Source of the DNA: Antedon mediterranea
Lineage: Eukaryota; Animalia; Echinodermata
DNA length: 64,000 nucleotides
Direction: 5' to 3'
NCBI RefSeq assembly: GCF_964355755.1
Contig: NC_092672.1
Span: forward strand, 18,675,237 to 18,739,236
Shown: in pieces, positions 27,363-64,000 of the stretch
Layout: every line of letters begins with the position of its first letter
Numbering within the stretch: the first letter of the stretch is position 1
Program-made: the position numbers and the translations under genes
Notes under the pieces: model-generated
What the model was told of the DNA's origin: nothing
Database searches by the model: none
The model's input: only the letters and a program-made list of their open reading frames with translations

Positions 27363-27628
27363 TTTGATTAATAAACTCGATTTTTTAAGTTACATTCTTC
27401 CAGATAAATTATTATTTACTACATTTCGAAAAAATATATTGTTCTCCAAAAGGAAAATTACTTTTTCAATAATGCAGATATTTAACGTTAATACATCAGT
27501 GGTATATGTCCAAACAAATTGATGGTTATGTTTCGCGTTTAAAGGAAACCTACAAAAACAAATTGTATAAGCCGAATTAAGCATTTATGTTTCATAATAT
27601 ATGAGATTGAAATGTATGCGAGAAAATG

Positions 27629-30883: not shown

Positions 30884-31167
30884 TCTGGCTGAACTGGCAA
30901 TTTGAAATGTTAAAAATCTTCTTGAATAAACACCTTCCAGCACATAACGTATTAAAGACAAACGCTTCTTTAATGACTACCTTCAATGAAAAAAATATTC
31001 AACAAGCTATACGTACTTGACTCCATTACACAGCTTTCCAAAATGTCCTATAAAATTCAATTTTATGTTTCGCGTTTTGACAAAACCGTTTATTTCAGAA
31101 TTCAAAGATCATTAGAAAGTGTTATTTGTTTAAGAATATTAAAATATCACAATTCCTCTTGAACGTT

Positions 31168-32538: not shown

Positions 32539-32799
32539 CTTGACTACCTTAGTCTATACAATCAATGTAAACTATTATATAATGAATGCATTATTACAGG
32601 TGTAATATATTGCAATATAGTATAGCCATCGAAGTAGACATTTTCTTGCCGGGTTTGAAAACACATTGGCACAGCAATTACAATAGCTCTATGTTATGCT
32701 AGATTAATGTCCATTTAAAATAAAAATTGTGTTTAACGTTTTACAAAAATGGTATTTATCAAAAGAAATAGCATACCAATTTAAATTCATAATAACGTA

Positions 32800-34194: not shown

Positions 34195-34428
34195 CTTTAA
34201 TAAAACTGGTCAACTTGATCGTGATATTCGTCTTCAATAATCATATCTCAGGAAGTAATACTGTTTAAGAAAATGTCCAACTACCTACATCATTTTTAGC
34301 TGATAGAGAAATCATATTATTGACAAAACACATCTACAGTATTCTATCTGTCCTATACAATTAAAAACTGTGTTTCCCGTTTCTTTAAAACACTAATTTC
34401 AATAGAATTCCACAATTGCAATACCAAT

Positions 34429-35823
34429 CTATCTCATTGTATTAGATCTACTTGTGGCAGCATATATGTAGTGATTGCTTTGTATTTCCAAGTACATTGC
34501 ATCAACCTCTTTATCATCTGGTGCCTGAGCAGCAAATGATCTTCTCCAGATTGTGGCATCTCTTGTGCGAGGTAAAGGTAACGTCATTCTATCGCGAGGT
34601 TCAAAGTACACTTCAGGTTGATGTACTATTGTTGTAGTTTGATTTGTTGTGATGTTTCTTGAACATAAACAATAATAATAAACTGGAATCATAACGATGA
34701 TTACTAATAAAACTACACAAGCAACAATGATAATGACGATGACGTCAGTAGATAATCCTGACGACGTTTCTTTACTTATAGTGTTATTCCCACGTGATTT
34801 ATTGTTTTTATTATAATCAATAATTACAGTATTTTGAACTGATTTAACTGTGACATCGTTTTGTGTATCAGATTGTATCGTTAACGTAAAACTTGTTGAT
34901 GAACTTCCAATTTGATTTTCAGCTGTGCACGTGATTACAGTTCCATCCTGTTTCATTGTGGGATTATATAACATTAATATATGTCCAGTATTATCAATGT
35001 TGTATTCAATATTGTCGAGTGGTGGAAGAGTTAACCATGTATAACGAGTAACTGCAGGATTAGCGGTAGTGTCACAAATAAAGAAAGCTTGCTTACCGGC
35101 AGATATCAAACCTGTTTGAGGAGGAATGCTAACTCTTGGTTTGTAATATATTGTCAGTGGTTGCGTTGTACAATTTCTATTAAGATCAGGAATGTGTTCA
35201 TTTGTCATTGAACACATAGCTTTATATCCATTTAAATCAGGATTAGCAATTAACCTCTTTTGTAATCTTGCAGTTTCTCCATGAACTATTTCAACAACAT
35301 GTGTAGCGCCATCATTCCATCGTAATGTTACTGGTGGTTCTGTATACTCAGAAGCGCAGAAAAGCATGACGTCATCACCTTCTGTGTAAACATCCTGAGA
35401 TGCTGTACATAATGGGTATTTACCTCCAGGAATTTGTATTACATCAAAAAATGCTTTATTTGACTCCAGTACAAGAGTATTTTTTCCAAATACGTCACAT
35501 TGATACAATCCACGATCACTATTCCAAATACTTATGAACATAAGAATAAATTTAATTTGGTTATTTATTCTCCGCATAGTCACTACAAAATGACTCTTAT
35601 CGTTAATATCTTCTCGTACATGTCCGTCTGTAGCTATGTATTCCTCATTTTTCTTCCATTTCAACTCATAATTTCCTTTATCAAAATCTTTTAATTTTAA
35701 AATACAATCAAGCGAAGCTGTTTCTTTTACATTAACAGTGTTGTTAAATGGATGTTTATCAAACCGCAGACTACAAATGAGACAGAATAAATAACAAAAT
35801 ACAGTAATAGAAAATAGTTTCAT
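34429..35823 (-). CDS. IgSF receptor A6; V type c-like
   Basis: Same architecture, 464 aa. Confidence 0.92.
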   Translation of the reverse strand: MKLFSITVFCYLFCLICSLRFDKHPFNNTVNVKETASLDCILKLKDFDKGNYELKWKKNEEYIATDGHVREDINDKSHFVVTMRRINNQIKFILMFISIWNSDRGLYQCDVFGKNTLVLESNKAFFDVIQIPGGKYPLCTASQDVYTEGDDVMLFCASEYTEPPVTLRWNDGATHVVEIVHGETARLQKRLIANPDLNGYKAMCSMTNEHIPDLNRNCTTQPLTIYYKPRVSIPPQTGLISAGKQAFFICDTTANPAVTRYTWLTLPPLDNIEYNIDNTGHILMLYNPTMKQDGTVITCTAENQIGSSSTSFTLTIQSDTQNDVTVKSVQNTVIIDYNKNNKSRGNNTISKETSSGLSTDVIVIIIVACVVLLVIIVMIPVYYYCLCSRNITTNQTTTIVHQPEVYFEPRDRMTLPLPRTRDATIWRRSFAAQAPDDKEVDAMYLEIQSNHYIYAATSRSNTMR

Positions 35824-36088
35824 CTTGGCTGAATTTGAAATACCTTTTTAAATAAACATTTTGAAGCACATAAAGGCAACTAGTTCCTTAGCAATTACCT
35901 TCCTCATTGTCACATAATAAAGCAAGAACATTTACTTATCGACGCTACTTTACACAGCTATTCCTAATGTCCTACTTAATACGATATTATGTTTAGCGTT
36001 TTGCTAAAACAAGTTTATTTCAGAATACACACACCAAATAAAAAAAACACTATTGACAACCATTTTAAGCTAATACCATAAAAACGTT

Positions 36089-37480
36089 CTATCTCATTGT
36101 ATTACATCTACTTGTGGCAGCATAGATGTAATGATTACTTTGTATTTCCAAGTACATGGCATCAACCTCTTTATCATCTGGTGCTTGAGCAGCAAATGAT
36201 CTTCTCCAGATTGTGGCATCTCTTGTGCGAGGTAAAGGTAACGTCATTCTATCGCGAGGTTCAAAGTACACTTCAGGTTGATGTACTATTGTTGTAGTTT
36301 GATTTGTTGTGATGTTTTTTGAACATAAACAATAATAATAAACTGGAATCATAACGATGATTACTAATAAAACTACACAAGCAACAATGATAATGACGAT
36401 GACGTCAGTAGATAATCCTGTAGATGTTTCTTTATTGACAGTGTTATTTCCACGTGATTGATTATTTTCATTATAATTAATAATTACAGAATCTTGAGCT
36501 GATGTAACTCTAACATCTTTTTGTGTATCAGATTGTATCGATAACGTAACACTCGTTGATGAACTTCCAATTCGATTTTCAGCTGTGCACGTGACCACAG
36601 TTCCATCCTGTTTCATTGTGGGATTAGACAACATAAATATGTGTCCAGTATTATCAATGTTGTATTCAGTTTTGTCGAGTGGGGGAAGAGTTAACCATGT
36701 GTAACGAGTAACTGCCGGATTAGCGGTAGTCTCACAAATAAAGAAACCTTGCTTACCAGCAGATATCAAACCTGTTTGACGAATGCTAACTCTTGGTTTG
36801 TAATATATTGTCAGTGGTTGCGTTGTACAATTTCTATTAAGATCAGGAATGTGTTCATTTGTCATTGAACACACAGATTTATATCCATTTAAATCAGGAT
36901 CAGCAATTAATCTCTTTTGTAATCTTGCACTTTCTCCATCAACTATTTCAACAACATGTGTAGCGCCATCATTCCATCGTAACGTTACCGGAGGTTCTGT
37001 ATACTCAGAAACGCAGAAAAGCATTACGTCATCACCTTCTGTGTAAACGTCTTTAGATTCTGTACATAATGGATATTTATCATCAGGAATTTGTATTACA
37101 TCTAAAAATGCTTTATTTGACTCTAGTACAAGACTGCTATTTTCAAATACATCACATTGGTAAAATCCCCGATCGCTATTCAAAACCCCATAGAAAAAAA
37201 TATTGTAAATAATTTGCATATTATCTTCATTTATTGTGACAATAAAGTTTTGCGATGTTTTCAAATCCTCTCGTAAAACGTCGTTAATGGCAATGTATTC
37301 TCCATCTTTCTTCCATTTAAGTTTGTACTGGCTTGTAATCGTTGTATCAAATTCTACAATGCAAATTAACAAAACTGCTCCTTTAGCTTTTACAGTTGAA
37401 TTTGATGGTTGTTTATCAAACACAAGACAATTCGTAATGTTAAAAAACAGAAAAATATAACTAAGCACTGTTAATAGCAT
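36089..37480 (-). CDS. IgSF receptor A7; V type a-like
   Basis: Same architecture, 463 aa. Confidence 0.92.
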   Translation of the reverse strand: MLLTVLSYIFLFFNITNCLVFDKQPSNSTVKAKGAVLLICIVEFDTTITSQYKLKWKKDGEYIAINDVLREDLKTSQNFIVTINEDNMQIIYNIFFYGVLNSDRGFYQCDVFENSSLVLESNKAFLDVIQIPDDKYPLCTESKDVYTEGDDVMLFCVSEYTEPPVTLRWNDGATHVVEIVDGESARLQKRLIADPDLNGYKSVCSMTNEHIPDLNRNCTTQPLTIYYKPRVSIRQTGLISAGKQGFFICETTANPAVTRYTWLTLPPLDKTEYNIDNTGHIFMLSNPTMKQDGTVVTCTAENRIGSSSTSVTLSIQSDTQKDVRVTSAQDSVIINYNENNQSRGNNTVNKETSTGLSTDVIVIIIVACVVLLVIIVMIPVYYYCLCSKNITTNQTTTIVHQPEVYFEPRDRMTLPLPRTRDATIWRRSFAAQAPDDKEVDAMYLEIQSNHYIYAATSRCNTMR

Positions 37481-37758
37481 CTTGATTAATATTCTTGATT
37501 TTTAAGATGGCTACAGTTCTCTAGATCAATAGTTACTTACTGTACTTCGAAAGTAGTAGTAGTAGTTTTCGCAAAGCAACGTTACAATGGAAACGACAAT
37601 GAATATAGTTATTATATTCTTTATCAATGGGCAATGTCCAAATGAATTGGTGGTTGTGTTTCACGTTCTCAAAAAACGTTACATAAACAGATTATATCAC
37701 CAGAAATAAGTATTGCTGTTGACACATTATATGAGATAGAAATGTATGCGGGAAAGTG

Positions 37759-39153
37759 TTACCGCATTGTATTACATCTACTTGTGGCAGCATATATGTA
37801 ATGATTACTTTGTATTTCCAAGTACATGGCATCGACCTCTTTATCATCTGGTGCCTGAGCAGCAAACGATCTTCTCCAGATTGTGGCATCTCTTGTGCGA
37901 GGTAACGGTAACGTCATTCTATCGCGAGGTTCAAAATACACTTCAGGTTGACGTACTATTGTTGTAGTTTGATTTGTTGTGATGTTTCTTGAACATAAAC
38001 AATAATAATAAACTGGAATCATAACGATGATTACTAATAAAACTACACAAGCAACAATGATAATGACGATGACGTCAGTAGATAATCCTGTAGATGTTTC
38101 TTTATTGACAGTGTTATTTCCACGTGATTGATTATTTTCATTATAATCAATAATTACAGAATCTTTAGCTGTTGAAACTGTGACATCATTTTGTGTATCA
38201 GATTGTATCGTTAACGTAACACTTGTTGATGAACTTCCAATTTGATTTTCAGCTGTGCACGTGATTACAGTTCCATCCTGTTTCATTGTGGGATTATACA
38301 ACATTAATATGTGTCCAGTATTATCAATGTTGTATTCAGTTTTGTCGAGTGGTGGAAGAGTTAACCATGTATAAATAGTAACTGCAGGGTTAGCGGTAGT
38401 GTCACAAATGAAGAAAGCTTGCTTACCGGCAGATATCAAACCTGTTTGAGGAATGCTAACTCTTGGTTTGTAATATATTGTCAGTGGTTGCGTTGTACAA
38501 TTTCTATTAAGATCAGGAATTTGTATATTTGTCATTGAACATACAACTTTATATCCAATTAATTCAGGATTAGCAATTAATCTCTTTTGTAATCTTGCAG
38601 TTTCTCCATCAACTATCTCAACAATATGTGTAGCGCCATCATTCCATCGTAATGTTACTGGCGGTTCTGTATACTCAGAAATACAGAAAAGCATGACGTC
38701 ATCACCTTCTGTGTAAACATCCTGAGATGCTGTACATAATGGGTATTTATCTCCAGGAATTTGTATTACATCAAAAAATGCTTTATTTGACTCCAGTACA
38801 AGAGTATTATTTTCAAATATTTCACATTGATAAAATCCACGATCGCTATTCCAAACACTATTGAACATAAGATTATACGTAATAGTCCCGGTGTTTCTAC
38901 TCACATCGACAAAAAAATGATTTAAATTTTTCAAATCTTCTCTTATTTTATCTTCAGTGGCAATATATCCATTGCCATTTTTCTTCCATCTTATCTTGTA
39001 TTGGTATTCAAGACTAAGTTGTGTTTTTAAAATACAAATTAACGAGCTAGTTTCTTTTACGTTAGATGTAGAGTTTCTAGGATGGTAATCGAAAGACAAA
39101 CAGCGTGCAAGTTGAAACAATACTACTTCAAACAATACTACAACAATCTTCAT
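37759..39153 (-). CDS. IgSF receptor A8; V type b
   Basis: Same architecture, 464 aa. Confidence 0.92.
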   Translation of the reverse strand: MKIVVVLFEVVLFQLARCLSFDYHPRNSTSNVKETSSLICILKTQLSLEYQYKIRWKKNGNGYIATEDKIREDLKNLNHFFVDVSRNTGTITYNLMFNSVWNSDRGFYQCEIFENNTLVLESNKAFFDVIQIPGDKYPLCTASQDVYTEGDDVMLFCISEYTEPPVTLRWNDGATHIVEIVDGETARLQKRLIANPELIGYKVVCSMTNIQIPDLNRNCTTQPLTIYYKPRVSIPQTGLISAGKQAFFICDTTANPAVTIYTWLTLPPLDKTEYNIDNTGHILMLYNPTMKQDGTVITCTAENQIGSSSTSVTLTIQSDTQNDVTVSTAKDSVIIDYNENNQSRGNNTVNKETSTGLSTDVIVIIIVACVVLLVIIVMIPVYYYCLCSRNITTNQTTTIVRQPEVYFEPRDRMTLPLPRTRDATIWRRSFAAQAPDDKEVDAMYLEIQSNHYIYAATSRCNTMR

Positions 39154-39601
39154 TGTTTATGTTATTATCGTATTAGAAATGATGTTTTACACTATGTTGT
39201 CTCGAAACAATCTCTGATAATATTCCTAAAATGAACAGCAAACGACTGCGAATTTATAATTTTAGAAACATGTCCAGACAAATATATGATTTTGGTACTC
39301 GTTTTGAGGAAACTATATAAGTAAGAATCTACATCAGTGTCACCTTTCATTAATCTTACTTATGTAAAAGTATGATAGACTTGCAAAATGATTTAAGAAA
39401 CTTTTTACTTCACTGATTGCTGGAAAATGTTACGTTATTGAATTAGGCATAACTCATCGTAAATGATAGGAAAATATAAAAGGATATTATTTCTCATTAT
39501 AATATTATCTACTTCTATAGGTAGTACCATATTAATTTATACATCAACATTGTGAAAGTTAAGGTTGTACTCTCTGAAAAAGGTAATAGGAAAGAGGCTT
39601 A

Positions 39602-40996
39602 TTAGCTAATTGTATTAGATCTACTTGTGGCAGCATATATGTAATGATTACTCTGTATTTCCAAATACATGGCATCAACCTCTTTATCATCTGGTGCCTG
39701 AGCAGCAAATGATCTTCTCCAGATTGTGGCATCTCTTGTGCGAGGTAAAGGTAACGTCATTCTATCGCGAGGTTCAAAGTACACTTCAGGTTGATGTACT
39801 ATTGTTGTAGTTTGATTTGTTGTGATATTTCTTGAACATAAACAATAATAATAAATTGGAATCATAACGATGATTACTAATAAAACTACACAGGCAACAA
39901 TGATAATGACGATGACGTCAGTAGATAATCCCGAAGATGTTTCTTTATTTAATGTGTCATTTCCACGTGATTTATTATTTTCATTATGATCAATAATTAC
40001 AGAATCTTTAGCTTTTGAAACTGTAACATCGTTTTGTGTATCAAATTGTATCATTAACGTAACACTCGTTGATGAATTTCCAATTCGATTTACAGCTGTG
40101 CACGTGATTACAGTTCCATCATGTTTCATTGTTGGATTAGACAACATAAATATGTGTCCAGTATTATCAATGTTGTATTCAGTTTTTTCGAGTGGTGGAA
40201 GAGTTAACCATGTATAAATAGTAACTGCAGGATTAGCGGTAGTGTCACAAATAAAGAAAGCTTGCTTACCGGCAGATATCAAACTTTTTTGAGGAATGCT
40301 AACTCTTGGTTTGTAATATATTGTCAGTGGTTGCGTTGTACAATTTCTATTAAGATCAGGAATGTGTTCATTTGTCATTGAACACACAGCTTTATATCCA
40401 TTTAAATCAGGATTAGCGATTAACCTTTTTTGTAATCTTGCAGTTTCTCCATGAACTATTTCAACAACATGTGTAGCGCCATCATTCCATCGTAATGTTA
40501 CCGGAGGTTCTGTATACTCAGAAGCGCAGAAAAGCATGACGTCATCACCTTCTGTGTAAACATCCTGAGATGCTGTACATAATGGGTATTTATCTCCAGG
40601 AATTTGTATTACATCAAAAAATGCTTTATTTGACTTCAGTACAAGAATATCATTTTTAAATACGTCACATTGATAAAATCCACGATCGCTATTCCAAATA
40701 CTTATGAATATCAGATTATACGTAATAGTCCCGATGTTTCTACTTACATCAACAAAAAAATGATTTAAATTTTCCAAATCTTCTCTTATTTTATCTTCAG
40801 TGGCAATATATTCATTGTCATTTTTCTTCCATCTTATCTTGTATTGGTATTCAAGACTAGGTTGTGTTTTTAAAATACAAATTAACGAGCTAGTTTCTTT
40901 TACGTTAGATGTAGAGTTTCTTGGGTGGTAATCGAAAGACAAACAGCGTGCAAGTTGAAACAATACTACTTCGAACAATACTACAACAATCTTCAT
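39602..40996 (-). CDS. IgSF receptor A9; V type b with a type-c patch
   Basis: Same architecture, 464 aa; C-terminus NTIS. Confidence 0.92.
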   Translation of the reverse strand: MKIVVVLFEVVLFQLARCLSFDYHPRNSTSNVKETSSLICILKTQPSLEYQYKIRWKKNDNEYIATEDKIREDLENLNHFFVDVSRNIGTITYNLIFISIWNSDRGFYQCDVFKNDILVLKSNKAFFDVIQIPGDKYPLCTASQDVYTEGDDVMLFCASEYTEPPVTLRWNDGATHVVEIVHGETARLQKRLIANPDLNGYKAVCSMTNEHIPDLNRNCTTQPLTIYYKPRVSIPQKSLISAGKQAFFICDTTANPAVTIYTWLTLPPLEKTEYNIDNTGHIFMLSNPTMKHDGTVITCTAVNRIGNSSTSVTLMIQFDTQNDVTVSKAKDSVIIDHNENNKSRGNDTLNKETSSGLSTDVIVIIIVACVVLLVIIVMIPIYYYCLCSRNITTNQTTTIVHQPEVYFEPRDRMTLPLPRTRDATIWRRSFAAQAPDDKEVDAMYLEIQSNHYIYAATSRSNTIS

Positions 40997-41454
40997 TGTT
41001 TATGTTATTATCGTATTAGAAATGATGTTTTACACTATGATGTCTCGAAACAATCTCTGATAATATTCCTAAAATGAACAGCAAACGACTGCGAATTTAT
41101 ATTATTAGAGACATGTCCAGACAAATATATGATTTTGGTACTCGTTTTGAGGAAACTTATAACATTAATTAAAGTAAGAATCTACATCAGTGTCACCTTT
41201 CATTAATCTTACTTATGTAAAAGTATGATAGACTTGCAAAATGATTTAAGAGACTTTTTACTTCACTGATTTCTTGAAAATGTTACGTCATTGAATTAGG
41301 CATAACTCTTCGTAAATGATAGGAAAATATAAAAGGATATTATTTTTCATTATAATATTATCTACTTCTATAGGTAGTACCATATTAATTTATACATCAA
41401 CATTGTGAAAGTTAAGGTTTTACTCTCTGAAAAAGGTAATATGAAAGAGGCTTA

Positions 41455-42831
41455 TTATCTCATTGTATTAGATCTACTTGTGGCAGCATATATGTAATGA
41501 TTACTCTGTATTTCCAAATACATGGCATCAACCTCTTTATCGTCTGGTGCCTGAGCAGCAAATGATCTTCTCCAGATTGTGGCATCTCTTGTGCGAGGTA
41601 AAGGTAACGTCATTCTATCGCGAGGTTCAAAGTACACTTCAGGTTGATGTACTATTGTTGTAGTTTGATTTGTTGTGATGTTTCTTGAACATAAACAATA
41701 ATAATAAACTGGAATCATAACGATGATTACTAATAAAACTACACAAGCAACAATGATAATGACGATGACGTCAGTAGATAATCCTGTAGATGTTTCTTTA
41801 TTTACAGTGTTATTTCCACGTGATTTATTATTTCCATTATAATTAATAATTACAGTATCTTGAGCTGATGTAACTGTATCAGATTGTATCGTTAACGTAA
41901 CATTCTTTGATGAAGTTCCAATTCGATTTTCAGCTGTGCACGTGATTACAGTTCCATCCTGTTTCATTGTGGGATTAGACAACATTAATATGTGTCCAGT
42001 ATTATCAATGTTGTATTCAGTTTTGTCGAGTGGTGGAAGAGTTAACCATGTATAACGAGTAACTGCAGGATTAGCGGTAGTGTCACAAATAAAGAAAGCT
42101 TGCTTACCAGCGGATATCAAACCTGTTTGAGGAATGCAAACTCTTGGCTTGTAATATATTGTCAGTGGTTGCGTTATACAAGTTCTATTAAGATCAGGAA
42201 TGTGTTCATTTGTCATTGAGCATACAGCTTTATATCCATTTAAATCAGGATTAGCAATTAACCTCTTTTGTAATCTTGCAGTTTCTCCATGAACTATTTC
42301 AACAACATGTGTAGCGCCATCATTCCATCGTAATGTTACTGCCGGTTCTGTATACTCAGAAACACAGAAAAGCATGACGTCATCACCTTCTGTGTAAACA
42401 TCCTTAGATGCAGTACATAATGGGTATTTATCTCCAGGAATTTGTATTACATCCAAAAATGCTTTTGTTGACGCCAGTACAATATTTTCAGTTTTGAAAA
42501 CATCACATTGATAAAATCCACGATCAGTATTCCAAACACTTACAAAGACAAGATCGAATTTAATTCGTGTACTACTTCTTCGTATTGTAACAATAAAATG
42601 ACTTGAATCTTTTAGATTATCCACTATATTTCCATTAGTAGCAATATATTCTTCGTCTTTCTTCCACTTCATATCATATTGTATTTCGTCGTTTGTTTTA
42701 TATTCTACAATACATGTAAGTGAAACTGCTCCTTCTGCTTGTACGGTTGAATTTAATGGATGCTCATCAAATAAAAGACAGCTTGTAAAACGAAATAAAA
42801 GAACATTAACAGCAAACACAAACCTTAACAT
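41455..42831 (-). CDS. IgSF receptor A10; V type d-like (start taken at MLRFV)
   Basis: Same architecture; shortened stalk as in A4. Confidence 0.92.
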   Translation of the reverse strand: MLRFVFAVNVLLFRFTSCLLFDEHPLNSTVQAEGAVSLTCIVEYKTNDEIQYDMKWKKDEEYIATNGNIVDNLKDSSHFIVTIRRSSTRIKFDLVFVSVWNTDRGFYQCDVFKTENIVLASTKAFLDVIQIPGDKYPLCTASKDVYTEGDDVMLFCVSEYTEPAVTLRWNDGATHVVEIVHGETARLQKRLIANPDLNGYKAVCSMTNEHIPDLNRTCITQPLTIYYKPRVCIPQTGLISAGKQAFFICDTTANPAVTRYTWLTLPPLDKTEYNIDNTGHILMLSNPTMKQDGTVITCTAENRIGTSSKNVTLTIQSDTVTSAQDTVIINYNGNNKSRGNNTVNKETSTGLSTDVIVIIIVACVVLLVIIVMIPVYYYCLCSRNITTNQTTTIVHQPEVYFEPRDRMTLPLPRTRDATIWRRSFAAQAPDDKEVDAMYLEIQSNHYIYAATSRSNTMR

Positions 42832-43069
42832 TCTTGAATAATTTTGAAAATACGTATTATACATAATTAGTATCATTCCCATATAAACGTATACTTTTGT
42901 AGTATATTGTCGAAACGTTTAAATATTGAGTAAATGTTTAATCATTACCATAGCACACGTATTAATAATTGAACTTGTCAGAAACATGCTCAGCTGAATT
43001 TGTTATTATGTTACGCGTTCTTAATTATAACAAAAAACAGAAACATATTATGCACAGTAACTTACTTAG

Positions 43070-43180
43070 TATATAGCAATGGTTACTCTGTATTTCCAAG
43101 TACATTGCATCAACCTCTTTATCATCTGGTGCTTGAGCAGCAAACGATCGTCTCCAGATTGCGGCATCTCTTGTGCGAGG
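43070..43180 (-). pseudogene. Truncated cytoplasmic-tail relic of an eleventh cluster A gene
   Basis: Near-identical to the tail-coding DNA (PRTRDAAIWRRSFAAQAPDDKEVDAMYLEIQSNH); homology stops abruptly at 43180. Confidence 0.85.
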
Positions 43181-53600: not shown

Positions 53601-56423
53601 ATAGTAGGCCTATATTTGTATTTGTTTTATATTAAGGGATTATATTTTTACCTTTATCATAACAATTAGTTATGTTAATTATTATTTTAAAAATCATTAT
53701 TGTTAGGACTAAAATACTTAATAACTAGTAAGTCCGATTTCAATATTGCACAGTAAACAAATCTGACTAGTCGTAGCTCATTATAATATTCCGTGTCAGT
53801 ACGCGTGTCTCATTATAATAAGAGACACTTTGTAATTCTGCATTTGTTGGCCTTTTATCTACAATGAATTGATTTGATTTTAATTAAATTTGATTAATTA
53901 TCAACCAATTTATTATACAAACGAATATCTATAGACAATATGTGAACATTTTCAAACAACTTTATTTATTCAATACTATTACAAAAAAATATAAAATGTT
54001 AAAACTAAACAATTCCTAAATTAAAATGTAGTGCTTCAATAAGAAATGTTAACGATTTTAGATAATTTAGTGCAATATCCGTGATACAGCGGAACATCGA
54101 TACACAACAGTATCACATCATGTGCGACGGTATTTAGAATTGTTCTATTTGAGAGTGGGTAAATATGTAATGAACAAGATAGTTTGAATCTACTTTACAA
54201 CTTACTATGACAATTACTTGTACATAGCTACAGTAGTATTAACATTAGTACCTTATTTAGCAATTGCATTATATATACACAACGTAATGATTATAACCCA
54301 AAAGTTCTAATTCTAAAATATTAATATGTCCAGTGCACCAAATGTATTACAAAACCTATTACTTATATGTAATAGTCTAATTACGTAAATAATTAAAAAT
54401 TAATAGGATTACCATTTAACATTACATATAATACACAATTTATAAATATTCACGATCATCATTGTAATTCTCTGCACAGGTTTGCAATAATGGCAACAGC
54501 ATCGCGTTCAAAAAAAAGAATATATACGGTCACATGCTATATTGAATTTAAAATTAATTTACCCAAATAACTATCTTGATCATATTAGAACTTCATAATT
54601 ACAATATTATCTATTTTTTATAGTAATTTTAAAACTTAGATATGCCTACCAACGATGAAATTGTCAACGTGTTTAATACTCAAATAACTATAAGTATACA
54701 GCACATTTATATAACATTATATTATATCTATAGCAAGCTTATAATATTCATATGACCTACAACTACAACTTACATCAATGTTTGGTTTTATTGTTGGTCA
54801 TTTATCGACTGGCTTCTAACAATATCAATAATATTAATAATAAAGTGATGTCGGATATTACGCTGTGTGTAGAAGACAAAGAACTTACGAACAAAGGATC
54901 TCTTTCTTTTAGTAGTATTGTAGTATTTATTTTAATTAGCTCTAAGCATTGAGCTAATTAACATAAATACTACATTATTGGCATAATGTGAGTAACTTGC
55001 ATTATGCCTATAATACTCTCATTCTTTAAACTGAAATTATTATACTGTAGCTATTTTATTTATAATAAGAAAAACCCTCTTAACTACGACTATAAAAATG
55101 TATATATATAATTTATATATATATATATGTAAATGAATATGAATGTTAATGATAAATGAACCATAATACTAATTATTGTATTAACATATTTAAACATATT
55201 TTTTTCTAAGAATAACATTATTTATACTGAATATATCTATGTATTGAATATGTTTTGGCACATATTATTAGCGAAATATATAAATTAATTAATAAAAAAT
55301 AAACAGGTAGAGAGCAATGCCCTATCTCACTTGAAATAACTAATTTAATTCTTTATGTACAGATATTTTTTACTAGAGTTGCTTATACATATTTGTTACA
55401 GTACATCACTAGTTAAATCCTTGTAGAGCTAAGCAAATAAAACACAACATTTACATAACCTATAATTATGATAATGTTTTGGGCACCGTGCGCTTTGTCA
55501 TTGATTATGCTAATGTATGCATTTGTATTTAAACGCCAACAAGGAATATTCATTTTACCGACTTACGACTTATACCTTTGGTTAAAACCGTCCCCAGTGA
55601 GTCATAACATAATAATTACGTTGTAGGCTTGTAAGTTATTTCAGCTGTGGTCTAAAACATGCTAATATTCGATGGCTTCTTTGTACACAGAATACAAAAT
55701 GGCTGAGTACACTTGCAATTACGTAATTGTCTGCTGTCTGTAATAAACAAAAACATGAAATACATTATTATGCTATGGCATGCTAATAATAATAATGGCA
55801 ATACTTTGATAATGATAATGATGATGGCAGGTGGGTGCTGGTTAATGATAATGTTCATAATCATACAACTATAAATATTAGAAATGAAAATAATAGTACA
55901 AAGATAAAATGTGTTAAGAACGTGATAAAGATCCGTCTTGTAGTTGACCATAGAGTAATAGTTATTACTCTATGGGTTGACGTACAACCTAAAATTAGAA
56001 AAATAATAAAAATGTGTCCAGAATTAGGATCCTGGATTGTCAGTCCTTGAATAGGCAAATTTTCACTTATAAAAAGAAAAAATAAATAAAATCAACCTAA
56101 AACACGTTGACTAGCATCGGTAAAATTTTCAGGTAAATAATATATTTTCTTTGATCCAATTTTTTGCCAATGTGAATAACTATTCTTTGACATAAAATGG
56201 ACTATTCAACCAAAAAATTAAAAGAAATGTTTTTTCAGGGGTACAATTTATCTTTAAATTTGACAAATATCCGACTTTTAGTTTTGAGGTTATTATTCTA
56301 ACAGAAAACATACACAAATATCTCAAATGAAACTGTAATAGTATTACTTTTTAATTGTCAATTCATGTTTTTAGAATCATAATTCAGTACCATAAAAAAA
56401 CGAAGGCTTTCATTTTGAAAGAA

Positions 56424-56530: not shown

Positions 56531-57490
56531 TTTTTTGTTGGTTTTGTTTGATTATCGTTATTCATAATTATGATTATTTATATGAACATCATAAATTGAA
56601 AAAGAGTAAATGTGTGGGTGGTGGGCAAACCTCAAGGCATCTCCACTAAGGAAAAGATAAATAAAAATAATATTAATACTGTTCTAAAAACGTAATATAC
56701 CCAAATCTGCTCATCGTGCCTGTCAATAACACAACTCCTAAACTAGGCATTTAACCAAGTGTTTTCAGTACATTACCACAATGTCTAACCTTTATACTGG
56801 TCAGGAAAACTGTACTAAATGTACTGAATATGTATACATAAACTTTAGTGTAGTTTCGTGAGAGATTCTAATAAATCGATTCCCAGTTTACGTTAGAATG
56901 ATATAGTGGTACAGTGGACATGACATTCTAACGATTCTTGCAGTTGTAAATTAAAAAATTAATACTGTACTTTGACTTAGAATAGGCCCTTTCTTGGTTT
57001 TTCACTTCCGTAGAAAAAAAGGAACAACATAATTTCACAAAATAACCAATTAAATTAAACTCCCATTGTTTAAAAGACAATGTCTGTAAAATACAGTTTT
57101 GTTGGGTAAATAATTTATTTTCGATCACATATTTGGTCAAAGTGAGTACCTATTATATATCTTTAATCGATTATGATAAATAGCTGAAAAGTATGATATG
57201 ATTGATTAACGATTATAAGAAATTAACAATAGTTAGAATGTAAGAAATATATATTTGCTGGTTGTTTCTTTATTCAATGTCCCTATTAAGACCATAATGT
57301 CTCTAGTGACGTCACGACGTAGGTAAATACTGTATGGCAAACATGAATCTCACAGAGCACTTTGAAATAATCTCTTGTTTCATTGTACATAGTAGATCGA
57401 TGTAGGTTAGTAGTTTAATTTTACATCTTTGGAAAAACAGAACCGTAATGTATATTAAGTACTATAGTCCACAGACAACAACTTACTTTA

Positions 57491-58879
57491 CTAAAGTGTG
57501 TTTTGATTGTTTCTGTCTCCAATGTACGTATATCCTTGTACATCAAGATCTTCAGGAACTTGAGAAGCAAATGAATGTCTCCAGTGACCATAATGTCCAG
57601 TACTTGGTAATCGAGGTAAAGATCGATCATAAAGACCACTATTTGAAACTCGATCTCTGGTATCATAGTACACAGTAGGTTGATATATCTCTCTACCAGA
57701 TGAATCAGTAGCAGTCCTTGTCTTACAGAAGCATTGATAATAAACAGGAATGATGACAACAACTACAACAATAATGACGACTAATATGATAATAATGATC
57801 ACAACATACAAAGAGATTTCCCTTTTGTCTCCTAAATCATCTGATAAAAGCATTTTATTTTCATCTTCATAGTCTGATTCGGAATTTCCACCCGTATTGC
57901 CATGATGTACATTACTATTCCGTTTCTCTTCACTAATGTATAATACAACTGTATGTGACGTTTCACCTACCACATTTTTACCTGTACATGTTATCTTAGT
58001 TCCATTGTGCTTGCGTGTGGGTTGCAAAAGACGGAATACTTGTCCATCATTTTCATATTCATTGACATCTAGCATTGGCAGAGAAATCCATTCATATTGT
58101 TTCACCGGTGGGTTTGCAAATGATTGACAAAATAGTATAGCATCAGATCCTGTATATATAACATCAGTATGTTGAATTTTTATGACTGGTTTGTAATAAA
58201 TATTTAAATTGTCGACTACACAGAAAGCAACATATGGCTGTTGTTTTACATGCGAAGATTGTTTACAAGTAAATGCATATTTTTTTTCAGCTTTTTTAGC
58301 ATTAAATGTCAAATTTGTATAAAAAAATTTTCCCCACACGTTACTTCGTACACCACTTGTAATTATCGTACCATTTTCATGTATCCAATTAAGTTCAACT
58401 GGTGGTTTGATAAGTTCACTTACGCATGATAATGTTATAGTAGATCCAACAATAAAACTGTCTCCAGAACCAATACACTGTGGGTAATCAGAAGATGGTA
58501 TTTGAAGTACCGTAAGATGCGCCGTGCCAGATCTTATGTTTTCATCTTCTTGTAGTCTACAGTGATAATCGTCTTCGTCTGTTAATGTAACATCTGATAT
58601 CACCAATGAATACATACGCATTTCACCAGAAGGAACTTTCAAGGAAGACATGGACATTCGGGCATTTTCATCCTTTATATTTTCATTTAGATCTGCTAAC
58701 TTACTACGTCCTTTCCACCAAGAAACGGCATTAACTACATCTTCAGAAATAAAACAAGAAAGAACTGCTTGTTTTCCTTCTATTACAGATACATCTTCAA
58801 GTTTTCCAACAAAACTAACACAACTAACGCCTAAAATGTGTGTCCACAGAAACAGTATAGTTACAATAATGTTTCCCAT
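57491..58879 (-). CDS. IgSF receptor B1 (SP-V-Ig-Ig-TM-tail), intronless CDS
   Basis: V-set LSC..WWK..DEDDYHC; TM LYVVIIIIILVVIIVVVVVIIPVYY; tail homologous to cluster A; 462 aa. Confidence 0.92.
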   Translation of the reverse strand: MGNIIVTILFLWTHILGVSCVSFVGKLEDVSVIEGKQAVLSCFISEDVVNAVSWWKGRSKLADLNENIKDENARMSMSSLKVPSGEMRMYSLVISDVTLTDEDDYHCRLQEDENIRSGTAHLTVLQIPSSDYPQCIGSGDSFIVGSTITLSCVSELIKPPVELNWIHENGTIITSGVRSNVWGKFFYTNLTFNAKKAEKKYAFTCKQSSHVKQQPYVAFCVVDNLNIYYKPVIKIQHTDVIYTGSDAILFCQSFANPPVKQYEWISLPMLDVNEYENDGQVFRLLQPTRKHNGTKITCTGKNVVGETSHTVVLYISEEKRNSNVHHGNTGGNSESDYEDENKMLLSDDLGDKREISLYVVIIIIILVVIIVVVVVIIPVYYQCFCKTRTATDSSGREIYQPTVYYDTRDRVSNSGLYDRSLPRLPSTGHYGHWRHSFASQVPEDLDVQGYTYIGDRNNQNTL

Positions 58880-59686
58880 TACATGTTCTATACAATATAT
58901 TTTCCGTTATGTTTCTTTCCTTGTTATTCAAAAAGTCAATCACCATTGTTTGTACCTTATAAATATTATTGTTTGACTGTTTCTAGTGAATTATAAGAAG
59001 TATAATATCTGTTTGTCAGGCAGAAAAGGTGCGTGCATATCGTTTGATAAAGCATGCTCATTAAAAAAAATAGTTTCTGGTATCTAAAAAATAACTAATG
59101 TGAATGCATATTGATTATAAAGTTACAACATTATACCTTTATCAAATTGGATTTTGTTTTCAATAATCTACAAAATAAACAATTAAAGTCGTTATAGATG
59201 ATATAATAATAGTGTATACGAACCATATTTGACGTCGAATGAAGGTAAAGAAGTTCGTATGATCACATTAAACTAGCAATCTAGGAATGTTGCTGGGCGC
59301 AAGTGCTATGATTGTGAACAACGGTGACTTTATTTTTGGAATAGGCCTTAAGTAGAAATACTTCATACATACATAAAATAATTATGTAAAACTGAATAAA
59401 TACTGTACTCTTAGGCTATTTATGTATTCACTGAAATGTATTCACTGAGCACATCATGATTATATAATTTTTTTTAACGGATGTGGATTTGGAAATAAAA
59501 ATGAAAATATAATAAGAACAATGCATTTTTTATCTTATCCTTTCTGTGATGAACTTCATATTTAACATGCACTCATTATTTCAACAAAGTTGAGAGGACC
59601 AGTGGCTATAAAAATGACCAATATTCTACTTGGTAGAGCTAAAATAAAATAATTATTTTTTTCTGTAACAAGAACAACCTACTATG

Positions 59687-61075
59687 CTAAAGTGTATTCT
59701 GATTGTTCCTATCTTCGATGTATGTATATCCTTGTGCATCAAGATCTTCAGGAACTTGAGAAGCAAAGGAATGTCTCCAGTGACCATAATGTCCAGTACT
59801 TGGTAATCGAGGTAAAGATCGATCATAAAGACCACTATTAGAAACTCGATCTCTGGTATCATAGTACACAGTAGGTTGATATATCTCTCTACCAGATGAA
59901 TCAGTAGCAGTCCTTGTTTTACAGAAGCATTGATAATAAACAGGAATGATGACAACAACTACAACAATAATGACGACTAATATGATAATAATGATCACAA
60001 CATACAAAGAGATTTTCGTTTTGTCTTCTAAATCATCTGATAAAAGCATATTATTTTCATCTTCATAGTCTGATTTGGAATTTTCACCTGTATTGCCATG
60101 ATGTACATTACTATTTTGTTTCCCGTCACTAATGTATAATACAACTGTATGTGACGTTTCACCTACCACATTTTTGCCTGTACATGTTATCTTAGTTCCA
60201 TTGTGCTTGCGTGTGGGTTGCAAAAGACGGAATACTTGTCCATCATTTTCATATTCATTGACATCTAGCATTGGCTGAGAAATCCATTCATATTGTTTCA
60301 CCGGTGGGTTTGAAAATGATTGACAAAATAGTATAGCATCAGATCCTGTATATATAACATCAGTATGTTGAATTTTTATGACTGGTTTATAATAAATATT
60401 TAAATTGTCCACTACACAGAAAGCAACACCTGGCTGTTGTCTTACATGCGAAGATTGTTTACAAGTAAATGTATGTTTGTTGTCAGCTTTTTTAGCATTA
60501 AATGTGAAATTTGTATAAACAAATTTCCCCCACACGTTACTTCGTACATCACTTGTAATTATCGTACCATCATCATTTATCCAATTTAGTTCAACTGGTG
60601 GTTTGATAAACTCACTTACACATGATAATGTTATAGTAGATTCAACTATAAAACTGTCTCCAGAAACAATACACTGTGGGTAATCAGATGATGGTATTTG
60701 AAGTACCGCAAGATGCGCCGTGCCAGATCTTATGTTTTCATCTTCTTGTAGTCTACAGTGATAATCGCCTTCGTCTGTTAATGTAACATCTGATATCATC
60801 AACGAATACATACGCATTTCACTAGCAGGAACCTTCGAGGAAGACATGGACATTCTAGAGTCTTCATCAATTGTATTTACAGTTAGAGCTGCTAACTTAT
60901 CCAGTCCTTTCCACCAAGAAACGACATTAACTACATCTTCAGAAATAAAACAAGAAAGAACTGCTTGTTTTCCTTCTATCGCAGATACATCTTCGGGCTT
61001 TCCAACAAAACTAACACAACTAACGTCTAAAATGTTTGTCCACAGAAACAGTATAGTTACAATAATGGTTCCCAT
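59687..61075 (-). CDS. IgSF receptor B2, a recent duplicate of B1
   Basis: Close to B1 throughout; upstream flank also duplicated (58880-59350 vs 61076-61510). Confidence 0.92.
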   Translation of the reverse strand: MGTIIVTILFLWTNILDVSCVSFVGKPEDVSAIEGKQAVLSCFISEDVVNVVSWWKGLDKLAALTVNTIDEDSRMSMSSSKVPASEMRMYSLMISDVTLTDEGDYHCRLQEDENIRSGTAHLAVLQIPSSDYPQCIVSGDSFIVESTITLSCVSEFIKPPVELNWINDDGTIITSDVRSNVWGKFVYTNFTFNAKKADNKHTFTCKQSSHVRQQPGVAFCVVDNLNIYYKPVIKIQHTDVIYTGSDAILFCQSFSNPPVKQYEWISQPMLDVNEYENDGQVFRLLQPTRKHNGTKITCTGKNVVGETSHTVVLYISDGKQNSNVHHGNTGENSKSDYEDENNMLLSDDLEDKTKISLYVVIIIIILVVIIVVVVVIIPVYYQCFCKTRTATDSSGREIYQPTVYYDTRDRVSNSGLYDRSLPRLPSTGHYGHWRHSFASQVPEDLDAQGYTYIEDRNNQNTL

Positions 61076-61996
61076 TACATGTCCTATACAATAGTTTTTT
61101 CGTTATGTTTCTTTCCTTGTTATCCAAAAAGTAATTCACCATTGTTTGTACCTTATAAATATTATTGTTTGACTGTTTCTAGTGAATTCTGAAAAGTATA
61201 ATATCTGTTTATCAGGCAAAAAGCGCGCATGCCCATCGTTTGCTAAAGCATGCTCAATTTAAAAAATAGTTTCTGGTATCTAAAAAATAACTAATGTGTG
61301 TGAATATTCATTAATAGAATTACAACATTATAACTATAAACAATTAAAGTCGTAGTAGATGATGTAATAATAGTGTATACGAACCATATTAGACGTATAC
61401 GATGAAGGTAAAGAAGTTCGCATGATCACATTGAACTAGCAACATGGGAATGTTGCTGGGCGGAAGTGCTATGACTGTCAACAACGGTGACTTCATTTTT
61501 TGAATAGGCCTTACATACAGCCTCTTACAAACATAAACTTGACAAACGTAAATGCCTGTATTATCATTTCCACCATATAAAATAATGTAAAACTGAATAC
61601 TGTACTCTTAGGTTGTTTTTATATTAACTGAGCACCTTATGATTATATAGTATTTTTTTTAGACATGTGTATTTGGAAATAAAGATAAAATGAATGCATG
61701 TATATATATATATATATAGAAGAAAAATATATATAAAAGAAAAATATTGAAAAAATGACAATGCTGTGGGTATCTCTGTATCTGCCAGAAAAGTTAGCAG
61801 AGCTTTTGGACAACACTGGCCCTTCATCAGTAAAGATACTAGGACAAAGATAAAATTATCCAAAGTATCCTCCAGGATTACAGAGTCAGATAAAGCTATT
61901 TCAATGAAGTTGAGAGGACCAGTGATTATAAAATTACCAGTATTCTACTTGGCAGAGCTAAAATAATTATTTTTTCTGTAACAACAACTTACTATG

Positions 61997-63364
61997 TTAA
62001 AGTGTATTCTGATTGTTCCTATCTTCAATGTACGTATATCCTTGTACATCAAGATCTTCAGGAACTTGAGAAGCAAATGAATGTCTCCAGTGACCATAAT
62101 GTCCAGTACTTGGTAAACGAGGTAAAGATCGATCATAAAGACCACTATTTGAAACTCGATCTCTGGTATCATAGTACACAGTAGGTTGATATATCTCTCT
62201 ACCAGATGAATCAGTAGCAGTCCTTGTTTTACAAAAGCATTGATAATAAACAGGAATAATGACAACAACGACAACAATAATGACGACTAATATGATAATA
62301 ATGATCACAACATACAAAGAGACACTATCCTTATTTTCTTCAGTATTCCTATTTGTATTTACTTTGTGTAATTGTATTAAGTCATTATTTTCTTCTCTAT
62401 ACAATTCATTTTCTCTTACAAGTGATATTATCAAAGTAAGTGTATCTCTACTGATACCAACATTGTTTTCGGCAGAACACGTGATTATTGTTCCATTTGC
62501 CGCTATTGATGGTTTTATAAGCGTCAATACTTGTCCATCTGCAATATATTTATTTGCATTTATTACAGGTAAAAATGTCCATCTGAATTGAGTAACTGGA
62601 GGATTAGCAAATGATTGACAGAATAAAATAGAATCAGATCCGGCGAATAGTGTACTTGTGTGTTGTATTTTAACTTCTGGGCGATATTGTATATTCAGAT
62701 TTTGAACTGTACAGTTGCGCTTTCCAGGTAAAACATCTGTTGTTTGAAAACAAGTAAATGTACCATCGTTATCTAGTTTGTTTGCTTTGAATACATAATG
62801 ATTATATATAAGTGGGTCTTTATTTTCCCTCGATGTCTTCGAAAGCGAAACATCTCTTGTCTTGTAATTCCAACTTAATTGAACTGGTGGATTAATCATT
62901 TCACTAATACAAGATAACTTTATTTCCGATCCAACAACGTAACTCTCTTTTGATTGAATACATTTTGGATATTCACCTGATGGAATTTGATAAACTGCGA
63001 GATAAGCTGGTTGTGATTTAACTTTATTATTTATTTTACAGTGATATTCACCTGCATCTGTTTGCTTTAGGTTGGTAATCAGCAACAAATATGAATAAAT
63101 GTGTGTGTCACCAACTTGCTCTAGGTTTACTGACAACCTCGAATCTTTCAATAAAACTTCTGCTTGATTGCTTAACTTAACATCATCTCTCCACCACGAA
63201 ACTTCATCATTTTTTGGATTAATGTTTTCAATATAACATTTTAGCGTTGCTGCTTTACCTTCTGGTTCGCCTACATCATTGGGTCTTGCAGTAAAATGTC
63301 CACATTCTACAATATGTACAACTACGACGCAAATTACGTATGTACGTATTATTATTATTTCCAT
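61997..63364 (-). CDS. IgSF receptor B3: divergent ectodomain, near-identical TM and tail
   Basis: V-set LKC..WWR..DAGEYHC; identical to B1/B2 from SLYVVIII onward apart from single residues; 455 aa. Confidence 0.92.
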   Translation of the reverse strand: MEIIIIRTYVICVVVVHIVECGHFTARPNDVGEPEGKAATLKCYIENINPKNDEVSWWRDDVKLSNQAEVLLKDSRLSVNLEQVGDTHIYSYLLLITNLKQTDAGEYHCKINNKVKSQPAYLAVYQIPSGEYPKCIQSKESYVVGSEIKLSCISEMINPPVQLSWNYKTRDVSLSKTSRENKDPLIYNHYVFKANKLDNDGTFTCFQTTDVLPGKRNCTVQNLNIQYRPEVKIQHTSTLFAGSDSILFCQSFANPPVTQFRWTFLPVINANKYIADGQVLTLIKPSIAANGTIITCSAENNVGISRDTLTLIISLVRENELYREENNDLIQLHKVNTNRNTEENKDSVSLYVVIIIIILVVIIVVVVVIIPVYYQCFCKTRTATDSSGREIYQPTVYYDTRDRVSNSGLYDRSLPRLPSTGHYGHWRHSFASQVPEDLDVQGYTYIEDRNNQNTL

Positions 63365-63856
63365 TTGAAGAATTCCTGATTGCGATTTTCAATATTTTAC
63401 CAGTATAATAATGAAAGTTTATGCGCTGAATACCTACAACATAATCCGAACGTTTAAGAGTCTAAATATGAGAGTAATATTAAATGAATATTAAATTCAC
63501 ATTAAATGAACATATTACCTCCAAGTTTCATCATTCGATTCCTAATGCTGTTATTGTTTATTTAACAATATTACCGATCTCTCATATTTATATCCTTCGC
63601 AAAATTAAAATGAAAAAGATCTTACTAGCATTAAAACGATACAACGCATACTGGATATTAAGTTGTGTTACTGGTATGGGCAAAATGAAGTTTTCATAAT
63701 AATACAATAATCACACTAGGCCAACCTCCAAAATTAGTTTCAGTGTTTTTGTTTTTTCAGAGTTTTGTTGTAATAATTCTTAAAACGAAAGAAAGTTGAG
63801 AAGAAGGTTTTTGTATAATTATCTTTTGCATCCAAACAGTCGATAGGAAGCTTGAT

Positions 63857-64000
63857 TTAATCTTGAAGTGTATTTTGATTGTTCTTATCTTCAATATACG
63901 TATATCCTTGTACATCAAGATCTTCAGGAACTTGAGAAGCAAATGAATGTCTCCAGTGACCATAATGTCCAGTACTTGGTAATCGAGGTAAAGATCGATC
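63857..64000 (-). CDS. IgSF receptor B4, 3' end only (runs off the window)
   Basis: ...DRSLPRLPSTGHYGHWRHSFASQVPEDLDVQGYTYIEDKNNQNTLQD*. Confidence 0.8.
   Translation of the reverse strand, partial: DRSLPRLPSTGHYGHWRHSFASQVPEDLDVQGYTYIEDKNNQNTLQD

Follow-up and report, generated by a model that had tools for sequence, protein, structure and literature searches.

A crinoid tandem array of nectin-like immunoglobulin receptor genes with homogenised tails and a probable shared 3' exon, and its possible use as a protocadherin-like recognition code

Introduction

The nectin and CADM genes are dispersed and multi-exon, and the C-terminus of their products carries a PDZ-binding motif (afadin or MAGUK). 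The Alr genes of Hydractinia are also multi-exon and encode V-like, I-like and FN3-like domains, and both their domain content and their gene structure are unlike those of the crinoid array described here. With nectins and Necl/CADM proteins (PDB 5zo1, 4fmf) this array shares a three-Ig V-C2-C2/I ectodomain and a single transmembrane segment (TM), but its tails have no Pfam match (none in the seven tails searched) and no class I PDZ-type end (0/48 tails, class I being the one pattern searched). With the Alr complex it shares the character of a clustered invertebrate Ig family, which in Hydractinia reportedly serves self-recognition (PMC9546547). The chelicerate sDscam genes are a further invertebrate Ig family, in which variable cassettes, arrayed in tandem at the 5' end and each equipped with a promoter, are spliced to constant exons; according to one report (PMC4835542), these cassettes comprise two to four exons and one or two Ig domains, and the constant exons encode the remaining protein. 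In contrast, the crinoid cassette is a whole ORF without FN3 among its Pfam matches, and its product is nectin-like rather than Dscam-derived.

The closest parallels lie in the clustered protocadherins of vertebrates (Pcdh alpha, beta and gamma). According to two reports (PMC7811963, PMC1852091), these share with the crinoid array tandem large variable exons in several subclusters, a homogenised 3' region whose discrete boundaries vary from one subcluster to the next, divergence of the converted parts between subclusters (in fugu), a conserved upstream element at a similar distance from the ATG (here in cluster A only), and, probably, splicing onto a shared downstream exon (here of B-type tails, in runs not recorded as RNA). 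As in Pcdh beta, each exon encodes a whole protein. On the other hand, the constant exons of Pcdh alpha and gamma encode the tail, while the likely shared exon of the crinoid B genes lies after the stop codon and is non-coding. The crinoid proteins also have Ig domains instead of the six cadherin repeats; Ig families alone were matched in B1, B3 and A1, and the genes are not members of the clustered protocadherins. A CTCF consensus had three matches, a chance level, and none in either cluster. GC3, which rises in the fugu protocadherins, shows no increase in the homogenised block, with 0.16-0.19 in the B tail and 0.22-0.27 in V. The layout resembles that of clustered protocadherins, but Ig genes make it up and its probable shared exon is non-coding. 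Echinoderms reportedly lack clustered protocadherins and have a single isolated protocadherin gene, according to a published account (PMC10734073).

Results

The window, that is, the whole stretch of 64,000 nucleotides analysed, comes from the feather star Antedon mediterranea and carries a tandem array of single-ORF Ig-type surface-protein genes (Table 1). The original prediction gave B1 to B4 one common SP-V-Ig-Ig-TM-tail design. This was confirmed for B1, B2 and B3 by their uninterrupted ORFs, by Pfam matches in B1 and B3 (V-set, C2-set, Ig_2/Ig_3) and by a predicted model of B3; B4 enters the window with its tail end only. The same genes had been called intronless, a term that is right for, and limited to, their coding sequence, because a GT-AG-ended joint starts 4 nt past the B3 stop codon. 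As genes, the B members are probably not intronless.

Table 1. Positions of the genes and sequence features in the window
Feature	Position	Strand	Remarks
B1	57491..58879	-	single-ORF SP-V-Ig-Ig-stalk-TM-tail, 462 aa
B2	59687..61075	-	462 aa; recent sister of B1 (89% aa); tail end and 3' flank B3-like
B3	61997..63364	-	455 aa; other ectodomain subfamily, TM+tail as in B1/B2
B4	63857..64000	-	only tail end in window; terminus NTLQD-stop
Homogenised TM+tail block of B3	61997..62323	-	counterparts about 57491-57817 and 59687-60013
B3 splice donor GTAAGT	61987..61992	-	4 nt after stop; used in joint to 55737
B2 predicted donor GTAGGT	59677..59682	-	4 nt after stop; use not seen
B1 predicted donor GTAAGT	57481..57486	-	4 nt after stop; use not seen
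Acceptor	55738..55765	-	T-rich tract with terminal CAG at 55738
Likely shared non-coding 3' exon of B genes	53950..55737	-	about 1.8 kb; start from two joints, end inferred
Sister cluster A	25959..42882	-	ten single-ORF genes; SP+V variable, Ig2 to stop homogenised
A-specific upstream element AACG-N2-WAACAYA-N15-GGACA	27507..43022	-	one copy before each of 10 A genes
Copies of the A element	27507, 29143, 31044, 32708, 34349, 35968, 37635, 39271, 41114; variant at 42984	-
A-type tail remnant	43079..43180	-	34 codons, 90-95% nt identity to A tails; then GTAAGT

As predicted, the B cluster runs beyond the window: five further B-type proteins come from outside it and are listed with a contig of 38,962,182 nt, as are four A proteins that we equated by eye with A6, A7, A9 and A10 of the window. 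The family comprises at least 20 genes in one species. Its tails fall into classes A, B and C. Each class is set apart by a single branch in the tail tree and again in the ectodomain tree, and each is present in two genera (Antedon and the crinoid Anneissia), in agreement with the predicted locus of several subclusters, every one with its own tail type. Rows excluded from the trees were P0029 and P0041 (internal deletions), P0034-P0037 (window duplicates), P0030-P0033 (not of the family) and P0044 (fused model). The members are scattered in RefSeq under CADM-, KIRREL-, NCAM- or hemicentin-like names, and this mixture conceals that they are one family. Outside crinoids, only a lizard nephrin was matched at E<=1e-20; this absence is weak, because the search also missed P0034-P0043, ten proteins of classes A and C, although nine of them had been part of the query alignment. 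Rfam gave no match in 43000-64000.

In the predicted model of B3, three beta-sandwich domains precede a TM helix that spans residues 350-377, and the tail is modelled at low confidence. The top-ranked fold matches were Necl-4 and nectins (about 22% identity for the best sequence/fold match), and the nearest solved structures were Necl-4, nectins, DIPs and SYG-2. The ectodomain of B1-B3 has a nectin/Necl-like fold, with three Ig domains of the V-C2-C2/I type of Nectin/Necl (CADM). The tail motifs are RxLPxxP, which we take to be SH3-ligand-like, a tyrosine and WRxSxxxQxP. Read by eye, the tails end in NTL, NTMR/NTIR or TEND, which presumably differ from the nectin and CADM ends.

The claim that the B3 ectodomain is strongly diverged from that of B1/B2 while TM and tail are nearly identical proved correct. 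Amino acid identity to B1/B2 is 31/35% in V, 41/43% in Ig2, 53/51% in Ig3 and 98% in TM+tail, and the switch to similarity is abrupt, at about 62323 in the first codons of the TM. The B4 tail, likewise expected to be near-identical, matches B1, B2 and B3 at 129, 128 and 131 of 135 nt. Synonymous sites of the TM and tail are not as diverged as those of the ectodomain: B3 differs from B1 at 127/202 ectodomain sites and 9/75 TM+tail sites (Fisher p 9e-15), and from B2 at 127/201 and 8/75 (p 7e-16), which amounts to 63% vs 11-12%. TM+tail is under strong purifying selection as well, with a pN of 0.008 against a pS of 0.11-0.12 (pN/pS about 0.07).

In cluster A, similarity climbs through the last V strands and exceeds 0.9 from Ig2 onward, as expected if homogenisation starts right after V. 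The proposal that the boundary is a fixed trait of each cluster, after V in A and at the TM in B, did not survive. A start at the TM holds between B subfamilies only, as B-class proteins from outside the window meet B3 after V (P0002: V 66, Ig2 89, Ig3 89%), after Ig2 (P0003: 38, 49 and 89%) or at the TM only (P0009: 32, 52 and 61%). Hence, the convergence boundary within B is nested and pair-specific and is not a cluster property.

Phylogenetic trees of the B-class domains and the corresponding AU tests covered 17 rows. B1/B2 join the Anneissia proteins P0011-P0013 in each of the three ectodomain trees (support 100/100 in V, 99/99 in Ig2 and 97/97 in Ig3), and AU tests reject a single clade of the eight Antedon-side B rows (V p 8e-45, Ig2 p 1.5e-4, Ig3 p 4.9e-5). 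In the TM+tail tree, the same eight rows form a clade (100/98), and five TM+tail columns have no residue common to both genera. Class C behaves similarly, P0025 pairing with P0028 in the ectodomain (100/99) and with P0026 in the tail (100/97). Among 69 informative sites of the A constant region, 23% of the pairs less than 30 nt apart are incompatible, against 56% of those more than 300 nt apart (permutation p 0.0005). B2 itself looks like a mosaic of B1-like and B3-like tail sequence: towards the 5' end of TM+tail it agrees with B1 at 4/5 shared sites, from -29 to -10 it agrees with B3 at 5/5 sites, and its flank matches that of B3 at 112/150 nt, compared with 78-85 in the other five pairs. 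Since the ectodomains of B1/B2 group with Anneissia genes and the tails group by species, we have little doubt that the tails undergo concerted evolution.

This regional 3' homogenisation among paralogues is of the protocadherin type, and the homogenised block terminates at the stop codon. RNA-templated conversion was considered but not favoured, as homogenisation does not extend into the 3' flanks. Within Anneissia the B tails are only 87% alike, no more than the average between genera (87%), and homogenisation in that genus is hence weaker or older. In class A, the V tree mixes genera, yet a clade made up of window rows alone is not rejected by the AU test (p 0.076). Spacers and the SP+V that follow them showed no significant rank correlation (rho 0.17, p 0.15); as a post-hoc remark, the five spacer pairs of highest similarity are the same five as for SP+V.

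The upstream element of the A genes is present before 10/10 of them and absent before B1-B3 (0/3), and no common upstream element was found for B. The A-type tail remnant sits directly upstream of the element of A10.

A joint between 55737 and 61993, leading from a B3-type tail, was found in contigs of two runs, X9 and X5, which represent two organisms and two studies and are not recorded as RNA (X5 is guessed to be RNA, X9 is of unrecorded kind). Its CT..AC ends read GT..AG on the strand of the genes, and the 6255 nt skipped equal the distance from donor to acceptor. The sides of the joint measure 86 letters in X9 and 30 letters in X5. A second X5 joint, read by hand, leads from the tail of another paralogue, with the C-terminus NQNQNTL (present in P0009 alone among the five outside B proteins), onto the same exon start. 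Among the rows listed, no joint was specific to B1 or B2; one X5 contig continues unspliced across the B1 donor, and B4 has no GT donor right after its stop. The donor position is maintained across B1, B2 and B3, and the exon edge lies at the same place in an Anneissia model. In addition, RefSeq calls four different B ORFs of Anneissia isoforms X1-X4, with consecutive accessions, and residues 8-58 of P0011 are the B tail in another reading frame, ending at the stop codon. The exon end is placed from an AATAAA at 53970 and contig ends at 54146 and 53930. With a longest sense ATG-ORF of 46 aa and a donor beyond the stop, the exon does not encode a cytoplasmic domain. Altogether, a spliced 3' exon shared by the B genes is likely. 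The original prediction made no mention of it. A motif-based search for a comparable exon in A gave a weak GTAGAT, placed 23 nt short of the end in each of the 10 A ORFs, but Anneissia conserves the residues that follow it.

Discussion

We favour, with moderate confidence, a crinoid array of nectin-like Ig receptors with homogenised tails, a shared B 3' exon and a protocadherin-like recognition code. Each gene encodes its whole protein in one ORF, and gene conversion with unequal crossing-over likely holds TM and tail uniform. Purifying selection may keep the tails similar enough for continued exchange, and homogenisation would for that reason decay 5'-ward and end at the stop codon. Each gene would have its own promoter, with the A element as a candidate. 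B transcripts are likely spliced just past the stop onto one shared non-coding exon, which would provide a common 3' UTR and polyA site. The products would form a cell-recognition code in which outer specificities are numerous and each subcluster has a single inner signal, through putative per-cell promoter choice, trans-binding by the V domain and signalling by the tail motifs RxLPxxP, tyrosine and WRxSxxxQxP. On the recognition-code function we lean slightly to the doubtful side.

Two alternatives concern the genomic mechanism. Tail identity could stem from purifying selection alone, on protein and DNA (for instance, with the tail as a regulatory element for the next gene) and without gene exchange. 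The low pN/pS of TM+tail, the stop-codon limit of the block, the unraised GC3 and the survival of the A-tail remnant just upstream of the A10 element would all fit, but the synonymous sites of A vs B are saturated (TM 0.72, tail 0.59), cluster A has a direct recombination signal, and the tails group by genus with genus-diagnostic residues; already weakened by the B-class trees, this explanation is very improbable. It is also improbable, if less so, that the 55737 joint is a private 3' UTR intron of B1 or another single gene, reached by upstream genes through read-through, or an assembly artefact of near-identical tails. Gene ends can be exchanged in short contigs that pass through such tails, the X5 joint has short sides and the exon is closest to B1; however, both joined tail ends differ from that of B1, and the length of the X9 side, the donor position kept in three genes and the matching exon edge in Anneissia argue for a shared exon.

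Other readings accept the array and its mechanism and differ in what the proteins do. Variable V domains with a constant tail are typical of immune receptor families, and this layout would suit innate immune or allorecognition receptors with a variable ligand-binding V and a uniform signalling tail. A YxxI/L/F-type tyrosine pattern occurs in 48/48 tails, juxtamembrane matches included, and the Atlas row 'Histocompatibility ligand transmembrane form' scores 0.95, as one among many equal Ig matches. We nevertheless consider this role unlikely, given that no match to the ITIM, ITSM or ITAM consensus patterns was found in the 48 tails, V-domain dN/dS was 0.18-0.60, below 1, in 6/6 A pairs tested, and ectodomain lineages endure across two genera. 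Slightly less likely still is a deterministic code of heterophilic matching, with classes A, B and C binding one another in the manner of nectins or DIP/Dpr pairs and without stochastic self-identity. The nearest solved structures and the adjoining of three ancient classes speak for such a code, but the shared exon, the repeated upstream element and the pervasive homogenisation point to interchangeable isoforms.

The layout of the array would suit a protocadherin-like cell-identity code. In its broadest form, the proposal is that crinoids independently evolved an identity system like that of clustered protocadherins from nectin-like Ig genes, with dozens of whole-protein exons in three subclusters, per-cell promoters, a tail kept by recombination and a shared non-coding terminal exon that gives B isoforms a common 3' UTR; taken as a whole, this is a doubtful proposition. 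A literature search with most subscription journals outside its reach found no published description of the crinoid array. The upkeep of its constant region, by recombination inside each ORF together with a non-coding shared exon, is unusual. With at least 20 genes in one species, the locus is a concrete candidate for how echinoderm cells may discriminate self from neighbour.

Results

Cluster A comprises ten genes (A1-A10), and B1, B2, B3 and the end of B4 lie about 14.6 kb upstream of it on the same minus strand. Each complete A or B gene is a single ORF of 455-475 aa, encoding a signal peptide, V-set, C2-set and third Ig domains, a stalk, a transmembrane segment (TM) and a tail some 80 aa long. 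Among solved structures, Necl-4/CADM4, nectins and DIPs are the top matches in both sequence and fold, at about 20% identity. The close relatives found come from feather stars in every case, and four database proteins match A6, A7, A9 and A10 (compared by eye). Counting B4 and putatively Antedon members from outside the window, the Antedon side has a minimum of 10 A, 9 B and 3 C genes, the letters denoting tail classes. In Anneissia, a second feather star genus, 24 of the family proteins listed cover the three classes, putatively on one scaffold of 1,305,899 nt. Several subclusters, each with its own tail type, had been proposed; this is borne out, as A, B and C each form one side of a branch in the tail tree and in the ectodomain tree (46 rows), and the third class, C, occurs in both genera. 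The long Anneissia model P0044 (1463 aa), which clusters with the C-class protein P0023, is probably several tandem genes merged by annotation. Other features are compiled in the table.

Features of the window
Feature	Position	Strand	Remarks
Acidic ORF	42-1934	+	630 aa; no Pfam match; probably a large exon
Two ORFs	14709-17305	+	ARM_ARMC5 and BTB matches; likely exons of ARMC5; flank the array, strand opposite to the clusters
Tandem array	17800-22170		38-40 nt unit; 4.4 kb; ~112 copies; 96% matches; pronounced strand skew; separates ARMC5 from cluster A
Cluster A	25959-42882	-	ten genes
Isolated A-type tail remnant	43079-43180	-	a short way upstream of the A10 element; 90-95% identical to A tails, then GTAAGT; probably what remains of a deleted upstream A gene
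High-copy repeat fragments	48400-50600 and 61784-61832		matched by very many contigs; one short piece in the B3 3' flank, none in the B2 flank
Likely 3' exon	55737 to ~53950		no long ORF
Joint	61993 to 55737		skips 6255 nt; ends read GT..AG on the gene strand
B4 C-terminal extension	63857-63866	-	extended to NTLQD; no donor past the stop

The original prediction described a B3 ectodomain strongly diverged from B1/B2 next to a nearly identical TM and tail, and this holds at synonymous sites (Nei-Gojobori counts). Rather than being equally diverged in both parts, B3 differs from B1 at 127/202 sites in the ectodomain and 9/75 in TM+tail (Fisher p 9e-15), and from B2 at 127/201 and 8/75 (p 7e-16). 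Since B1 and B2 themselves differ by 9% in the ectodomain and 12% in TM+tail, the B3 tail is as near to their tails as these are to each other. Synonymous sites in TM and tail are free to change, as A-B comparisons are saturated there (TM 0.72, tail 0.59). Purifying selection on TM+tail is strong too (pN 0.008). The switch in identity is sharp and placed at the first TM codons, and similarity among B1, B3 and B4 is lost no more than a few bases from the stop codon. The homogenised parts show no rise in GC3.

Trees of 8 Antedon-side and 9 Anneissia B proteins point the same way. B1/B2 group with Anneissia P0011-P0013 in the V, Ig2 and Ig3 trees, where a clade of the Antedon-side B rows is rejected (AU p 8e-45, 1.5e-4 and 4.9e-5, respectively); in the TM+tail tree these eight rows form one clade (support 100/98). 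Hence, the ectodomain subfamilies predate the genus split but the tails do not, the signature of concerted evolution, which we regard as a well-supported mechanism for the tails. Five TM+tail columns have no residue common to both genera. Against a simple picture, however, Anneissia B tails are alike at only 87%, which equals the cross-genus mean. The class A proteins separate by genus in Ig2, Ig3 and TM+tail, with support of at least 100/99. Their V tree intermingles the two genera, though without significance in the AU test (p 0.076).

Homogenisation had been described as starting at the TM in cluster B and right after V in cluster A. B3 and B1/B2 do converge at the TM; a fixed boundary per cluster is not what we found, as the pattern is nested within B. 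V/Ig2/Ig3 identities of B3 are 86/93/97% with P0001, 66/89/89% with P0002, 38/49/89% with P0003, 32/52/61% with P0009 (all B proteins outside the window) and 31/41/53% with B1, at a TM+tail identity of 96-100% throughout. Homogenisation therefore fades from the 3' end and extends further between closer subfamilies, and cluster A resembles a single subfamily in this respect.

The A constant region has 69 informative sites, and 49% of site pairs are incompatible; the share climbs from 23% for the closest to 56% for the most distant pairs (permutation p 0.0005). A rank test for A spacers travelling with the following signal peptide and V was not significant. Along the B2 TM+tail, the 5' portion is closest to B1 and the tail end to B3, as is the flank, a mosaic that may have arisen by unequal crossing-over within the common tail.

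The B genes had been called intronless, which is correct for the coding sequence of each complete gene but probably not for what follows the stop. Exactly 4 nt past it are donor sequences in B1 (GTAAGT), B2 (GTAGGT) and B3 (GTAAGT), and the joint in the table occurs in contigs of sequencing runs X9 (organism B) and X5 (organism A), neither recorded as RNA. Its acceptor side carries a T-rich tract ending in CAG at 55738. One X5 contig of 1592 nt ends precisely at 55737, and the unmatched end that X5 leaves at 61993 is the start of the likely 3' exon. A second X5 joint leads from a different tail end to the same site; this end encodes NQNQNTL (read by hand), a peptide unique to P0009 among five B proteins from outside the window. 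Joints of B1 or B2 were absent among the contig matches listed, and one X5 contig passes the B1 donor unspliced. In Anneissia, isoform labels X1-X4 with consecutive accessions fall on four different B ORFs, and the X1 model opens with B tail sequence, translated in a different reading frame as far as the stop codon, and then enters the next gene; an exon edge thus falls at the equivalent point. Altogether, a non-coding 3' exon common to the B genes is likely. B4, with its longer C-terminus and lack of a post-stop donor, may terminate its transcript in another way.

A1-A9 each carry a bipartite motif, its two parts a constant 15 nt apart, 122-174 nt ahead of the ATG. The strict form of the motif occurs six times, whereas 100 shuffles yielded none; leave-one-out scores span 19-39 bits, the 14 kb gap reaches no more than 4.3, and the A10 copy, outside the training set, scores 27.7. 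The B genes lack this motif, and it does not match the CTCF consensus. The element is a candidate promoter of each A gene.

Among 48 tails, WRxSxxxQxP is present in all, juxtamembrane CxC in 47 and RxLPxxP in 33; ITIM, ITSM, ITAM and class I PDZ ends, searched with consensus patterns, occur in none. V-domain dN/dS ranges from 0.18 to 0.60 across the six close A pairs compared, giving no sign of an arms race.

Discussion

The pattern originally described has a precise precedent in fugu protocadherin (Pcdh) subclusters, whose 3' regions are near-identical up to discrete boundaries, placed differently from one subcluster to the next (PMC1852091); PMC12227049 cites Noonan. As PMC7811963 describes, Pcdh alpha and gamma variable exons are spliced to coding constant exons, each beta gene consists of a single exon, and nearly every variable exon or gene has a conserved element upstream. 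From the genome layout, the crinoid locus is like Pcdh beta genes plus a likely gamma-style shared exon, here placed behind the stop codon. An Ig parallel among invertebrates is sDscam (PMC4835542), and echinoderms are reported to be without clustered protocadherins (PMC10734073). The locus lies outside all families compared, protocadherins and sDscam alike. We found no description of this crinoid Ig family in the literature searched; the family is real and looks undescribed. Our best guess is that it may provide feather stars with a protocadherin-like cell-recognition code.
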